Assembly (NCBI GenBank): GCA_965238005.1
Contig: OZ250165.1
Coordinates: 1,312,001-1,376,000 of the forward strand
Source of the DNA: Longimicrobiales bacterium
Lineage (GTDB): Bacteria; Gemmatimonadota; Gemmatimonadetes; Longimicrobiales; Gaopeijiaceae
Direction of reading: 5' to 3'
Length of the DNA: 64,000 nt
In this document: in pieces, positions 58,992 through 64,000 of the stretch
How the letters are laid out: each line of letters opens with the position of its first letter
Position numbering within the stretch: the first letter of the stretch is position 1
Position numbers and translations under genes: made by a program
The notes under the pieces: model-generated
Told to the model about the DNA's origin: nothing
Databases searched by the model: none
The model's input: the letters and a program-made list of their open reading frames with translations, nothing else

Positions 58992-60188
58992 ATGGCAAAA
59001 GATCCCAGCTTCGAGAACGCCCTGGCGTTCGCCCAGGACCTGATCCGTATCCCCTCGCCCTCGGGGCAGGAAGGTGAAGTAGCCGATCGGATTCGCGGCG
59101 AGATGGAGGCCCTGGGCCTACAAGACATTCATATCGACGAGGTGGGGAACGTCATGGGCCGTGTGACGGGCCGGGGGGCCGCCCCGCCCGTGCTCCTCAA
59201 CTGCCACACCGATGTGGTGGCCGAGGGCGATCATGCCGAGTGGGAGCACCCGCCTTTCGGGGGAGACATCTCGGCGGGTTTCCTTCATGGTCGCGGGTCC
59301 ATGGATATCAAGGGTCCACTGGCCCTGCAGACGTACGCTGCCGCCGCCTTGACCGGGCGTGCCGCGGGAGACGTGATCGTGGCGCACACGGTCTTCGAGG
59401 AGCGGGGTGGTCTGGGCATGAAGCACCTCCTCGAGTCCGGGAGTGTGGAGCCGGGCGCCGTGGTGATCGGGGAATCGACGCAAGGAGACGTCTGCATCGG
59501 CCACCGGGGGCGGGGAGAGGTCGAGGTGGTGGTGCACGGCCTCGCTGGTCACGCCTCCGCCCCGGACCGGGCCCACAACGCCCTGGACCCCGTCCCTGAA
59601 GTGCTCGCCGCCGTCCACGAGCTAGCACGTGACCAGCCGGAGGATCCGGTTCTAGGTGCGTCTAGCCTGGTGGCGACCGGTGTGGACGTCCTGCCGGAGA
59701 GCCGGAACGTGATTCCCGACCGCGTCACCATCGTCCTGGACTGGAGGGTTCTGCCTGGCACGGACGACGAGGCCATGACCTCGCGCGTGCGGGAGGCCGT
59801 GAATCGTCGGCTCGGGGAGCTTCCGGACGGGTTCAGCCTAACCATATCCATGGCCAGGGAACGGCAGGCGACCTACACGGGAGTAACGTACGAGCGGAGC
59901 CTGTTCACTCCCGGCTTCCTCATGGAGCCCCTCGATCCCCTGGTCCTAGCCGCGGCTTCTGCGGTGGGGCGCCGCGACGGCGAGGGGCCAGCCAGGGTGC
60001 GTCCGTGGACGTTCGCCACCGACGGTGGATGGAGTCGAGGCGTTTTCGGCATCCCCACTGTGGGGTTCGCTCCGGGTGAGGAGCGTTTCGCTCACACCAA
60101 TCGCGAGCGGCTCGACGTAGAGGAAGCCCGTTGGGCCTACGCCCGTTACCCGGACCTGATCCTCGCGCTACAGGAGGAGCTCTCTTAG
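58992..60188 (+). CDS. M20/ArgE/DapE family metallohydrolase
   Basis: HTDVV, GRGSMDIKG, FEE, IGE, GHAS, AHT. Confidence 0.88.
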   Translation: MAKDPSFENALAFAQDLIRIPSPSGQEGEVADRIRGEMEALGLQDIHIDEVGNVMGRVTGRGAAPPVLLNCHTDVVAEGDHAEWEHPPFGGDISAGFLHGRGSMDIKGPLALQTYAAAALTGRAAGDVIVAHTVFEERGGLGMKHLLESGSVEPGAVVIGESTQGDVCIGHRGRGEVEVVVHGLAGHASAPDRAHNALDPVPEVLAAVHELARDQPEDPVLGASSLVATGVDVLPESRNVIPDRVTIVLDWRVLPGTDDEAMTSRVREAVNRRLGELPDGFSLTISMARERQATYTGVTYERSLFTPGFLMEPLDPLVLAAASAVGRRDGEGPARVRPWTFATDGGWSRGVFGIPTVGFAPGEERFAHTNRERLDVEEARWAYARYPDLILALQEELS

Positions 60189-60295
60189 GAGCGGTCCCGC
60201 GGGCGCTCTTGGAACTTTATCCCCGGTAGCTCGCCACCCTCATGCCGGTGGCTGTGCGGGGGTACAAAACGCACGGGCATGGCATATATTAAGCG

Positions 60296-60358
60296 GCTCA
60301 TCCCGCTCCGCCCGCGTGGCGGGGCCCGTGTGTACATACGGACCGTGGGAGAAAAACC
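60296..60358 (+). promoter_or_regulatory. Candidate S6:S18 autoregulatory mRNA leader
   Basis: TCCC can pair with the GGGA of the SD; internal hairpins; GACC before the SD; TATATT -10 at 60285. Confidence 0.5.
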
Positions 60359-61021
60359 ATGCGGCTATACGAGATCGTCTACATCTTCGACGCTACCCTC
60401 GACGAAGATGCGGTCAATAAGAAGCTGGAGAAGTTCCATCCCCTCGTGATCGGAAGCGACGGCGAAGTCATGGCTGTCGATCACTGGGGGGTGCGTCAGA
60501 TGGCCTACCCCGTGAAGAAGCAGAAGACAGGCAATTACGTGGTGGCGCAGGTTCGCGCCGGCTCCGACGGACTTCCGGAGTTCGAGCGGGTGCTCAGACT
60601 CGATACCGACCTCATGCGGTACCTGGTCGTCGTGAACGAGGGGGAGCCTACGTCGGGGAGGTCGATCCTCGGAGAGCCCCCCCCCCGCGCCCAAGAAGAC
60701 GCTGATGACGACGATGACGATGACGACCATGCGGATCCTGATGACGAAGCGTCCGAGATCGATGATAACGCCGCCGTGCGGCACAGCCCTCCTGAGTTCA
60801 GCGGTGGCCGGGGACGCCGGCGTCGTATGGAGGGGCCGGTCATCGAGCTCCTCAACTACAAGGACGTTTCGACGCTGTCTCAGTTCATGACCGAGCAGGG
60901 AAAGATCTTGCCGAAGCGTACGACGAAGGTCACGGCCCGCTTCCAGCGACAGCTCGGACGCGCCATCAAGCGGGCCCGGTATCTGGCGCTGATCCCATAC
61001 GTCCGGGACCACGAGGTCTAG
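60359..61021 (+). CDS. rpsF-rpsR: Fused 30S ribosomal proteins bS6-bS18
   Basis: S6 YEIVYI...WG.RQMAYP, acidic linker, then S18 NYKDV...GKILPKRTT...QRQL..AIKRARYLALIPY in one frame. Confidence 0.9.
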   Translation: MRLYEIVYIFDATLDEDAVNKKLEKFHPLVIGSDGEVMAVDHWGVRQMAYPVKKQKTGNYVVAQVRAGSDGLPEFERVLRLDTDLMRYLVVVNEGEPTSGRSILGEPPPRAQEDADDDDDDDDHADPDDEASEIDDNAAVRHSPPEFSGGRGRRRRMEGPVIELLNYKDVSTLSQFMTEQGKILPKRTTKVTARFQRQLGRAIKRARYLALIPYVRDHEV

Positions 61022-61042
61022 GCCTCCTCGGAGCGAGATCTC

Positions 61043-61984
61043 TTGGATTCCACGGCGCGGCCGGAGCGAACATGGCTACGGGCCGCCGCACTCCTGCTCG
61101 TCACTCTCGCGCTGGCAGTTGTCAGTGCAGGGGTGTTGGTGGCGGTACCGTTCCTGGTCCTCGCGCTGGTCTTGGGCGCCCGCAGGTTTCCGACGGTGAT
61201 GGCCGCCATTCTGGCCGTGATGGTCACATTGGGGGTTACAGCACGTGGCGGTATCTGGTATCTGGAGCGCGGGTGGGCGGTCGTCTTGGCGGGATGGTTC
61301 GTGGTCCTGACGATGCGCTGGCCCGGCAGCCGGTTCTTCCCGCGAGCCTTGGGGGCCGTCCTGGGCACCTTCGCCCTCGTAGCGGCACTTCTGGCGCTCC
61401 AACCGGGCTCCTGGGCCATGGTGGACTGGCTCGTTACCGAGGGAATCATGAAGAGTGTCAGTCTGGCCATGAGCCTGCTGACGGTCCTGAACCCCGAACG
61501 GGACATCCCGACTGCCATGGTCAACAAAGTGTTCGCGACCGCGGCGCAGCAGGGAAGGCTCTTCCCGGCGCTTCTCGGTCTGTCGTCACTAGCGGGACTC
61601 GGAGTGGCCTGGTGGGGCTACGTTAGACTCTCTGCGGGGAATGACCAGGGATTGGGGCCGCTCAAGGATTTCCGGTTCAACGACCACTTTCTGTGGCTGT
61701 TACTGGTGGGGCTGACCTTGATCGTGCTCGGATTGGGTGAGGCATGGACGTTGGCGGGGACCAACGCCGTCGTGTTCATGGGCGGGCTCTATGCCATCCG
61801 AGGGGCCGCCGTGGTTCTGTTCTTCAACGGTGGTATCTCGCTGTTCGGTTTCTTGGCGGTGGCGCTCGGCATGTTGTTCCTTGCGCCTGTATTGATCATA
61901 GGGGCGCTGGTCATCGGCGTCGGCGATACTTGGCTCGACCTACGCGCCAAGGCCGAGGCGTTGGCCAGCGGCACTGACTCGTAG
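61043..61984 (+). CDS. YybS/DUF2232 family membrane protein
   Basis: Multi-TM; C-terminal D.WLDLR; usual position between rpsR and rplI. Confidence 0.8.
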   Translation: MDSTARPERTWLRAAALLLVTLALAVVSAGVLVAVPFLVLALVLGARRFPTVMAAILAVMVTLGVTARGGIWYLERGWAVVLAGWFVVLTMRWPGSRFFPRALGAVLGTFALVAALLALQPGSWAMVDWLVTEGIMKSVSLAMSLLTVLNPERDIPTAMVNKVFATAAQQGRLFPALLGLSSLAGLGVAWWGYVRLSAGNDQGLGPLKDFRFNDHFLWLLLVGLTLIVLGLGEAWTLAGTNAVVFMGGLYAIRGAAVVLFFNGGISLFGFLAVALGMLFLAPVLIIGALVIGVGDTWLDLRAKAEALASGTDS

Positions 61985-61997
61985 ACGGAGACGGTCC

Positions 61998-62453
61998 ATG
62001 AAGCTCATTATGAGGAAGACGGTGGAGACGCTCGGAGGTGAGGGCGACATCATCGACGTAAGGCCGGGTTACGCGCGCAACTATCTGATTCCCCAAGGAC
62101 TCGCGTACGTGGCGAGTGACGCCAACCTGAAGAGGTTGGAGGAGGAGCATGCGCGGGCCGAGGAGAGCGCCAGGCACGACTACCTGGAGGCGCGTCGTCG
62201 GGCGTCCCAGCTCGAAGGCACGTCGCTCGTATTTCACGTCAGAGCGGGGGATGACGGCAAGATGTTCGGCTCCGTAACGAACGCCGACGTCGCCGATCAG
62301 TTGAACCATGGAGAGCTGGACTTCGAGGTGGACCGACGCACCGTCATACTCGAAGAGCCGTTGAAACTCCTGGGGACCTTCAAGGTGCCGGTTCGCCTCC
62401 ACAGTCAGGTCGAGGTCGACGTGGAGGTTCGTATGGAGCGAGGCGAGGAGTAA
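61998..62453 (+). CDS. rplI: 50S ribosomal protein L9
   Basis: VRPGYARNYLIPQG, GKMFGSVT. Confidence 0.97.
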   Translation: MKLIMRKTVETLGGEGDIIDVRPGYARNYLIPQGLAYVASDANLKRLEEEHARAEESARHDYLEARRRASQLEGTSLVFHVRAGDDGKMFGSVTNADVADQLNHGELDFEVDRRTVILEEPLKLLGTFKVPVRLHSQVEVDVEVRMERGEE

Positions 62454-62493
62454 GCCTCTAGAGGTCGGGATGTGAGATCAGTCGAGCACCGAC

Positions 62494-62838
62494 GTGTCCG
62501 AGATTGGCCAAGACGTGCAGCGAGCAGCGGAGTTCGCCCTCGAACGCAAGGCAGCCGACGTGGTTGCACTCGACCTGAGGGGCATCTCGAGCGCCACGGA
62601 CTACTTCCTGCTCGCCACCGGGCAGTCCGACGTCCAGGTGAAAGCCATCGCCGACCACGTCATCGGGGAACTGAAGAAGGAGGGTATCCGACCGGCCCAT
62701 GTCGAGGGGCTGCAGGGGGGCCGCTGGGTCCTCGTCGATTACATCGAGTTCGTGGTGCACGTCTTCCACCCGGGGGCACGGGAATTCTACCAGCTCGAGG
62801 TTCTTTGGGGGGACGCTACGATGCATGAGTTCAAGTGA
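62494..62838 (+). CDS. rsfS: Ribosome silencing factor
   Basis: DYFLLATG, WVLVDY, VHVF, REFYQLE.LW. Confidence 0.95.
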   Translation: MSEIGQDVQRAAEFALERKAADVVALDLRGISSATDYFLLATGQSDVQVKAIADHVIGELKKEGIRPAHVEGLQGGRWVLVDYIEFVVHVFHPGAREFYQLEVLWGDATMHEFK

Positions 62839-62986: not shown

Positions 62987-64000
62987 TTGGATCGGGGCCA
63001 CTCGCGACTGTACCCGTTCGACCCCGACTCCGGTCGTCTACCGGAGGTCGCGGCACCCGGCGCACTCCTCTCCGGCGCCGGGAGGGGCGTCGTCACCCTC
63101 ATCGTCGCCCCGGACGTCATCCGGTCATCCTGGAGTCCCGCTGCTGCCGTGGCCCTCGCCCGAGCTTGGTTCGGTCAGGGCCACCGTGTCCTCCTCTGCG
63201 ATCTGTCACTCACCCGGCCCGTGCTTCACGAGAAGTTGGGGCTACCGAATGCCGTTGGCATCATCGACGTCGTCCTCCGGGAGGCACCGATCCCTTCAGT
63301 GGCACAACAGGCGGGGACGCCGGGCTTCCAGTTCGTTTCCGTCGGGACGCCGATCGAGGATCCCACAGAAGTCACTCTGAGCGATGAATGGGCCGCCTTC
63401 GTGGAGGAGGTGGTGGACGCTCAGGCCACGGTCCTGTTCTATGTGCCCTCAGACCTACCGGGTGTGGATGCTCTGGTAGCCCGCAGCGCTGCGACGCTGC
63501 TCTTGGCCGGCGACCCCGCCGAGGCGGAATGGGTGGCCCAGTCCTTCGCTCTCGACGATGTGGCAGGCCTCGTGGAGGACCGGGGTGAGGAGGGGGCGCA
63601 GGCGGCGGAGCCGCCGGAGCAGGCGGCAGAGCCGCTGGAGCAGGCGGCAGAGCCGCTGGAGCAGGCGGCAGAGCCGCTGGAGCAGGCGGCAGAGCCGCTG
63701 GAGCAGGCGGCAGAGCCGCTGGAGCAGGCGGCAGAGCCGCTGGAGGCACCCCGGCAGGCCGCTGCGGACGACTTCGGCTCCACTGCTGATTCGGGCGCCC
63801 TTGCAGAAGTGCAGGAGGGGACCGAGAACATGAGTGAGGAGCCCGATCCTGAGCCGAGGGTCATCCCGTGGCGGCCGGCGCTGGCCGGGACCCTAGTGGG
63901 GCTGGGGGCCCTGGCCTTGTGGCAGATCATGTTCACAACGCCGGAACCCGTACCGCCGTTGGTAGAGCCTGCTGCTCCCCAGCCACCCGTTTCCTCGGCG
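62987..64000 (+). CDS. Membrane protein with degenerate CpsD/MinD-like domain, acidic repeat linker and TM segment (runs off the window; not in the ORF track)
   Basis: TTG start after AGGAG; ALARAW...RVLLCDLSLTRPVLH..LG.PNAVGIIDV; TM near 63880-63935. Confidence 0.65.
   Translation, partial: MDRGHSRLYPFDPDSGRLPEVAAPGALLSGAGRGVVTLIVAPDVIRSSWSPAAAVALARAWFGQGHRVLLCDLSLTRPVLHEKLGLPNAVGIIDVVLREAPIPSVAQQAGTPGFQFVSVGTPIEDPTEVTLSDEWAAFVEEVVDAQATVLFYVPSDLPGVDALVARSAATLLLAGDPAEAEWVAQSFALDDVAGLVEDRGEEGAQAAEPPEQAAEPLEQAAEPLEQAAEPLEQAAEPLEQAAEPLEQAAEPLEAPRQAAADDFGSTADSGALAEVQEGTENMSEEPDPEPRVIPWRPALAGTLVGLGALALWQIMFTTPEPVPPLVEPAAPQPPVSSA
63598..63744 (+). repeat. 21-bp coding tandem repeat x7 (QAAEPLE)
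   Basis: GCAGGCGGCAGAGCCGCTGGA, six identical copies plus one variant. Confidence 0.95.

Follow-up and report, generated by a model that had tools for sequence, protein, structure and literature searches.

A single open reading frame on the forward strand of the window (by which we mean the whole 64,000-nucleotide stretch of DNA that was analysed) joins ribosomal proteins bS6 and bS18 in one 220-aa polypeptide (60359-61021; 24,982 Da, predicted pI 5.15). We consider it very likely that this is a genuine rpsF-rpsR fusion, made as one chain, which arose a single time at the base of the family of the source genome (family f1, Gemmatimonadota) by loss of the stop codon between two abutting genes. 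S6 and S18 normally form a pair before they bind rRNA. The fused gene represents a covalent version of this obligate ribosomal heterodimer that is clean, shared by the whole family and probably of single origin, and its parts are ordinary bS6 and bS18. The features that are the fused gene's own are a conserved PPEFSGGRGRRRR motif, an internal acidic loop, a cysteine-free S18, and an extra hairpin in the leader.

The N-terminal part of the protein (aa 1-102; 60359-60664, + strand) comprises the bS6 domain and a conserved EGEPT-G-S segment, as delimited by Pfam and NCBIfam matches and by an AlphaFold2 (AF2) model, and the C-terminal part (aa 157-220; 60827-61018, +) is a bS18 core of the cysteine-free type, delimited by Pfam and NCBIfam matches and by alignment. 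Pfam Ribosomal_S6 (PF01250) matched aa 4-91 (E = 1.3e-23, 83.4 bits against a cut-off of 27) and Ribosomal_S18 (PF01084) matched aa 165-212 (E = 4.1e-21, 75.3 bits against a cut-off of 21). The NCBIfam equivalog models TIGR00166 (S6) and TIGR00165 (S18) matched aa 1-94 (78.3 bits, cut-off 42.9) and aa 162-217 (76.2 bits, cut-off 38.75), respectively. For the S6 half, the sequence cut-off was passed across the whole domain and the S6 fold was also recovered; for the S18 half, the sequence cut-off was passed and solved bS18 chains matched at E = 3.8e-17. According to the ORF list of the window and the translation, the frame from 60359 to 61021 holds no internal stop, and in place of the ordinary two-gene arrangement of rpsF and rpsR, in which S6 ends at a stop and S18 has a start of its own, there is one open frame. 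A Shine-Dalgarno-like GGGAG (60347-60351, +), read from the sequence, lies 7 nt before the ATG in a column that is conserved in our alignment of upstream regions (alignment A2). No other S6 or S18 gene was found in the one-contig 4.84 Mb genome when the whole of it was searched with both Pfam models, so the fused gene must supply both proteins. The sequence-only reading of this DNA had described one 220-aa ORF made of an S6 and an S18 domain, which the Pfam and NCBIfam matches bear out. Its further remarks on an Asp-rich linker, a GRGRRRR run and a protein free of cysteine agree with the translation, and neither ssb nor priB lies between the two halves, as it had stated.

We assessed how widely the fused arrangement occurs by searching 41 relatives and 151 genomes across the phylum, which yielded 39 genomes of family f1 (including the source genome) and 147 genomes of the eleven other families of the phylum (f2-f12). 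Both halves lay in one stop-free open frame in 39/39 f1 genomes, 34 of them with a single full-length alignment and five with two alignments in the same frame; for these five, which have the same open-frame length, G020 was checked on the DNA and G108, G124, G157 and G167 by coordinate arithmetic. Each of the 147 genomes from the other families gave either two separate matches or one match crossing stop codons, a count in which many genomes were judged by the number of matches alone (138 matches unlisted) and 27 were checked on the DNA; without two unpublished genomes (G025 and G095), it becomes 145/145 split. At the DNA level, all 18 f1-type loci examined were fused (213-257 aa), and all 31 other loci were split (27 f2-f11 genomes, two public Gemmatimonadota MAG records and two outgroups). 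Given that these total lengths vary and that all the frames are open, every linker indel must be in frame. The split arrangement extends to families f4 and f5, which account for most of the sampled genomes of the class and belong to another order than the source genome. In a maximum-likelihood tree of the S6 core and S18 core (29 loci), the 18 fused rows formed one clade (100/99 support) nested in split Gemmatimonadota, with the two outgroups across the midpoint root. One supported fused clade implies that the fusion arose once, and a single origin at the base of family f1 is the simplest reading of the sequences compared. These counts also substantiate the earlier suggestion that the fusion is a lineage marker, since it is present in every f1 genome and in none of the 147 genomes from other families.

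The gene order of split relatives points to a route by which the fusion came about. In these relatives, the S18 start touches or overlaps the S6 stop (junctions TAAatg, TGAtg and TAGccatg), S6 and S18 are already in the same frame in five split loci (L016 and L021-L024), and S6 ends in an acidic C-terminal tail (e.g. ...DDDDDDLEEED). From an in-frame, abutting arrangement of this kind, one stop-codon change gives a fused frame, and the comparison of loci indicates that stop loss between abutting genes was probably the route to the fusion. We propose that the ancestor would have had abutting rpsF and rpsR genes, with the S6 stop touching or overlapping the S18 start and sometimes with both genes in the same frame, and that loss of the stop would have caused the acidic S6 tail to be read into the basic N-terminus of S18. 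The old S6 tail would thereby have become an internal, disordered, length-variable acidic loop, with the S6 and S18 folds intact, and the Cys/His cluster at the S18 N-terminus would have been replaced by the conserved PPEFSGGRGRRRR segment. The RGR of the fused GGRGRRRR aligns with the MARGR at the N-terminus of split S18, which fits fusion in place and not an imported gene. The product would be a single 25-kDa chain and the only source of S6 and S18 in the cell; it would bind the platform of the 16S rRNA already paired, as a 'heterodimer' with an obligatory 1:1 ratio, would stay uncleaved in the ribosome, and may still act through the CCG-hairpin leader, which is retained, to repress its own mRNA. 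As a separate observation, the S6 proteins of family f7 (L021, L022, L024 and L049, corresponding to G096, G119, G123 and G169) have very long C-terminal tails rich in Ala, Glu, Asp and Thr (S6 of 181-234 aa). In L021, L022 and L024, the S6 stop is in frame with S18 and the ATG follows 0-3 nt later, placing these loci one mutation from a second fusion.

The two domains are joined by an acidic, predicted-disordered linker (aa 103-143; 60665-60787, +; net charge -16), assigned from pLDDT values and alignment, and by the family-specific conserved motif PPEFSGGRGRRRR (aa 144-156; 60788-60826, +), defined from an alignment of 38 fused proteins. In this alignment, the near-invariant parts are the S6 core including EGEPT-G-S, the PPEFSGGRGRRRR-EGP stretch and the S18 core, and the columns of the motif at P144, P145, E146, F147, S148, G149, G152, R153, R154, R155 and R156 are invariant or at least 90% conserved. 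The linker ranges from 30 to 123 aa among the same 38 proteins (median 46), its D+E fraction lying between 0.23 and 0.56, and on comparison with split relatives it is mostly their acidic C-terminal S6 tail, inherited. AF2, run on the 38-protein alignment, gave a pTM of 0.67, with pLDDT of 88-95 over S6 (aa 1-90), 80-92 over S18 and below 50 over aa 109-154. The predicted S6 fold comprises strands at aa 2-11, 36-52, 55-67 and 85-92 and helices at aa 16-31 and 72-81, and the best Foldseek match of the S6 half was the bS6 chain 8cwo_F (E = 6.7e-11, TM 0.90 on target); queried with the single-chain model, Foldseek returned matches to the S6 half only and none to the S18 half. Short strands predicted at aa 103-104 and 162-164 suggest that the start and end of the linker may be close together in the model. 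In a distant database protein (P0185), S6 and S18 are joined by about 3 residues, so a long linker is not needed for reach.

Besides the linker, the fused S18 is distinguished by its lack of cysteine, which is absent from the window protein and from all of the 38 fused proteins, and this loss coincides with fusion in the f1 lineage. All four presumed zinc ligands are missing from the fused S18: CxxC and CxxH are present in 26/31 split loci (24/29 when the two outgroup loci are set aside and Gemmatimonadota alone are counted), and the S18 half of the window protein reads KVTARFQR where split relatives have GMCARHQR. The CxxC and further Cys/His pair of the zinc-binding (C+) bS18 subtype are therefore not found in the fused protein. 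According to PMC5912738, S18 is among the ribosomal proteins with zinc-binding and zinc-free forms, and the CxxC/CxxH residues are the presumed zinc ligands. The fused S18 is like the zinc-free (C-) bS18 described in that paper, for example mycobacterial S18-2, in that it has also lost all Cys ligands; it differs from S18-2, however, in being the only S18 of its genome and joined to S6, not a Zur-regulated spare copy. Replacement of CxxC/CxxH was also seen in split S18 of families f4 and f5, at all four positions in L035 and L037 and at some in L038, L039 and L042. As these five split loci lost ligands without fusion, Cys loss is not tied to fusion, and the idea that fusion permitted loss of the S18 zinc ligands is weakened by this partial or full loss in 5/29 split Gemmatimonadota loci. 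The sequences indicate that the presumed zinc site was lost repeatedly within the phylum.

Upstream of the fused gene, alignment A2 revealed a leader hairpin (60302-60325, +) made of CCCG followed by the 8-bp stem GCTCCGCC / GGCGGGGC with a 5-nt loop. The hairpin is kept in 20/20 A2 loci (13 fused, 7 split), with 96.9% of cells paired in leader helix 1 and 3/8 pairs changed on both sides. The motif that binds the S6:S18 complex has been described as a conserved CCG beside a hairpin upstream of rpsF (Matelska 2013, PMC3854524), and in the window a CCG likewise stands beside a hairpin directly upstream of rpsF, in a leader that includes the ribosome-binding site (RBS). The likeness to the known rpsF leader (PMC3854524; Babina 2015, PMC4647458) thus lies in the CCG by a conserved hairpin, in the position upstream of rpsF and in the reach to the RBS; the differences are that the window leader is unmatched by Rfam, that the fused family adds a small hairpin, and that the repressor would be a single chain. 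Rfam searches gave no rpsF leader in 59800-62600 (E up to 1) or in 60230-60380 (E up to 10), and the matches to H19_2 and mir-1471 were rejected as chance only. The added hairpin (CCGT ... ACGG; 60326-60341, +), between the leader hairpin and the RBS, is confined to the fused family, being present in 13/13 fused rows and gapped in 7/7 split rows of A2; it shows no two-sided covariation, and its structure is suggested by the sequence. By analogy with known leaders, conservation of the main hairpin suggests that feedback control is retained, with a single-chain repressor. Alignment A2 also shows conservation of a TATATT-like box (60285-60290). No promoter emerged from a scan of 60150-62600 for the sigma-70 consensus, and the two terminator-like sites in that interval were no more than occur in shuffled sequence.

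The fused gene is flanked upstream by an M20 peptidase and downstream by a 313-aa membrane protein, rplI and rsfS. The membrane protein (61043-61984, +) is DUF2232-like, its nearest Atlas clusters being DUF2232 (score 0.95), and had no Pfam or NCBIfam match; it keeps its place between the S6-S18 locus and rplI in 22/30 loci, in fused and split lineages. We take the position of 61043-61984 to resemble the yybS-gdpP-rplI neighbourhood of Bacillus. The rplI gene (bL9; 61998-62453, +), the downstream cluster member, was identified by Pfam Ribosomal_L9_N and Ribosomal_L9_C. Further downstream, an ORF at 62987-64000 (+) that runs past the window end carries at least six tandem copies of the 7-residue AAEPLEQ (about 63560-63740).

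We questioned whether the continuous frame could be a sequencing or assembly artefact, in which an indel masks a real stop and S6 and S18 are separate genes. Ten consecutive C lie in the linker (60677-60686, +; coding EPPPR) and are a possible indel hotspot, an out-of-frame TGA TAA occurs at 60763-60768 (GAT GAT AAC read at offset 2), and some ORFs in public collections encode S6 or S18 alone, with 60-98% identity to the corresponding half. However, contigs from three other studies (X1, X2 and X3) cover 60636-60805, 60636-60806 and 60636-60772, respectively, with 0 differences, 0 gaps and the same length of the C run, one of them perhaps not being independent as it may be the window's own source sample. 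Across 60593-60910, a contig of a close relative from an RNA library (where presence does not prove transcription) shows no differences other than substitutions and a single 6-nt deletion, in frame, at 60710. In-frame fusion moreover persists, despite many linker indels, in every f1 genome and in the 120 best of 1738 database matches (214-225 aa), all 120 of which have both Pfam domains. The S6-only and S18-only ORFs themselves prove on inspection to be gene calls with a frame shift, a chimeric make-up or a truncation (some, for example, start MTMTMMTT or end RRRRTRTTRRTT), and their probable origin is errors within the repetitive GAT/GAC linker. We accordingly rejected the high-identity S6-only and S18-only proteins of the 50%-cluster library as natural splits within family f1; P0133, P0137, P0142, P0201, P0202 and others are such frame-shifted or chimeric public gene calls. 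An artefact therefore has a vanishingly small probability in our estimation. The sequence-only reading had named a stop-restoring indel, with close relatives having separate genes, as what would overturn its claim of a natural in-frame fusion. No such indel appeared in the three studies' contigs and close relatives are also fused, so the claim stands, and the search that it proposed, for proteins with both Ribosomal_S6 and Ribosomal_S18 domains, did recover such proteins.

A genuine open frame might nonetheless give two proteins, either by internal initiation near aa 140-157 or by cutting of the linker after translation. The in-frame internal start codons of the window are a GTG at aa 140 and an ATG at aa 157, neither of which is conserved. 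In favour of a separate S18 product, the codon at the position of M157 is a potential start (ATG or GTG) in 10/18 fused loci (including the window), and the linker, being predicted to be disordered, may be accessible to proteases. Against it, the same codon is GTC, ATC, CAC or ACG in the remaining 8/18, and two of the 18 loci have no in-frame ATG, GTG or TTG between residue 97 and the NYKD motif, and hence no start before the S18 core. The most conserved stretch of the protein sits upstream of M157, as does the conserved PPEFSGGRGRRRR, whose RGR aligns with the N-terminus of split S18. Nor is there a conserved cleavage-like motif in the hypervariable linker of the 38 fused proteins, and the near-linkerless joint of P0185 indicates that a covalent link is tolerated in other lineages. 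Production of two proteins is thus improbable, and the earlier remark that there is no clear internal RBS and start holds, the aa-157 position being a non-start codon in 8/18 fused loci. For the single chain that we favour, a purpose had also been suggested, namely that the fusion places an acidic tether at the mRNA exit/anti-SD platform and so alters translation initiation. In favour of such a role, strong acidity of the linker is seen in every one of the 38 fused proteins, an Arg-rich segment stands next to it, and in solved ribosome structures the N-terminus of S18 is close to the Shine-Dalgarno helix. Yet the acidic stretch predates the fusion, as the S6 of split relatives ends DDDD...EEED, the length and sequence of the linker drift freely (30 to 123 aa), and the ribosome-binding site of the fused gene is still a GGGAG, all of which make this purpose very improbable. 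A broader and more speculative version, which we rate as unlikely, is that the fusion is no mere frozen accident and that the covalent link altered the way in which the platform proteins work. The acidic loop would act as a cis RNA mimic, shielding the Arg-rich PPEFSGGRGRRRR until docking on 16S rRNA or the gene's own leader and then lying beside the anti-SD/mRNA exit to tune initiation, and the tether would have made the S18 zinc cluster dispensable.

The fused protein shares its folds and families with the canonical bS6:bS18 of E. coli and T. thermophilus (PDB 1G1X, 4YBB and 7K00). The S6 half of the model superposes on solved bS6 chains (TM 0.77-0.90 on target), the S18 half matches solved bS18 chains by sequence at E of about 1e-17, and by analogy the fused chain is expected to occupy the same rRNA site as the canonical pair. 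The canonical pair, in contrast, consists of two gene products, whereas the window encodes one polypeptide in which the C-terminus of S6 is internal and no free acidic tail exists; all 60 of the PDB sequence matches listed (of 114) are separate S6 or S18 chains. The split rpsF-rpsR of families f2-f12 occupies the same operon place and shares the leader hairpin and the acidic S6 tail (44-68% identity per half), but it keeps the stop between the genes and has neither the second leader hairpin nor the PPEFSGGRGRRRR motif. In E. coli, the ligase RimK extends the tail of S6. No TIGR00768 match above the cut-off was found in the genome (best 52.6 against 143.4 bits, with generic ATP-grasp matches), and with the S6 C-terminus internal and no RimK above the cut-off, the features of RimK-modified S6 of the E. 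coli type are not seen here. As many bacteria are without RimK, its absence says little.

The architecture is not confined to family f1 and, by sequence, recurs among distant database proteins. Both Pfam domains, in the order S6 then S18, were carried by 43/44 tested distant 50%-cluster representatives; these fusions are known from database proteins, and nine of the ten looked up are single-member clusters. Their linkers are unrelated, range from 3 to about 80 aa and are in many cases neutral or basic, and the PPEF motif is missing, so the distant fusions are probably independent events. Another distant representative (P0248, 189 aa) has two tandem S6 domains (Ribosomal_S6, 2 stretches, 158.9 bits) and no S18 domain. 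Atlas clusters from Gemmatimonadota also carry both Pfam domains, one of them automatically named 'Multifunctional fusion protein', and NCBI and JGI name fused proteins simply S6 or S18. In the literature accessible as main text (including part of PMC7203096), we came across no account of S6 and S18 being fused naturally.

The fusion leaves our understanding of the ribosome unchanged, and similar fusions occur elsewhere. Because the fused protein is named only 'S6' or 'S18', marker-gene pipelines may count either S6 or S18 as absent, and the frame-shifted S6-only and S18-only calls could mislead marker-gene counts. As a natural single chain, it offers a ready-made construct for studies of platform assembly and of S6:S18 autoregulation that is free of the stoichiometry problem. 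For the phylum, the S6-S18 fusion provides a clean rare genomic change by which one Gemmatimonadota family can be recognised, and its fixation as a single chain throughout a whole family of free-living bacteria (2-6 Mb genomes) means that the pairing step of S6 and S18 can be hard-wired.
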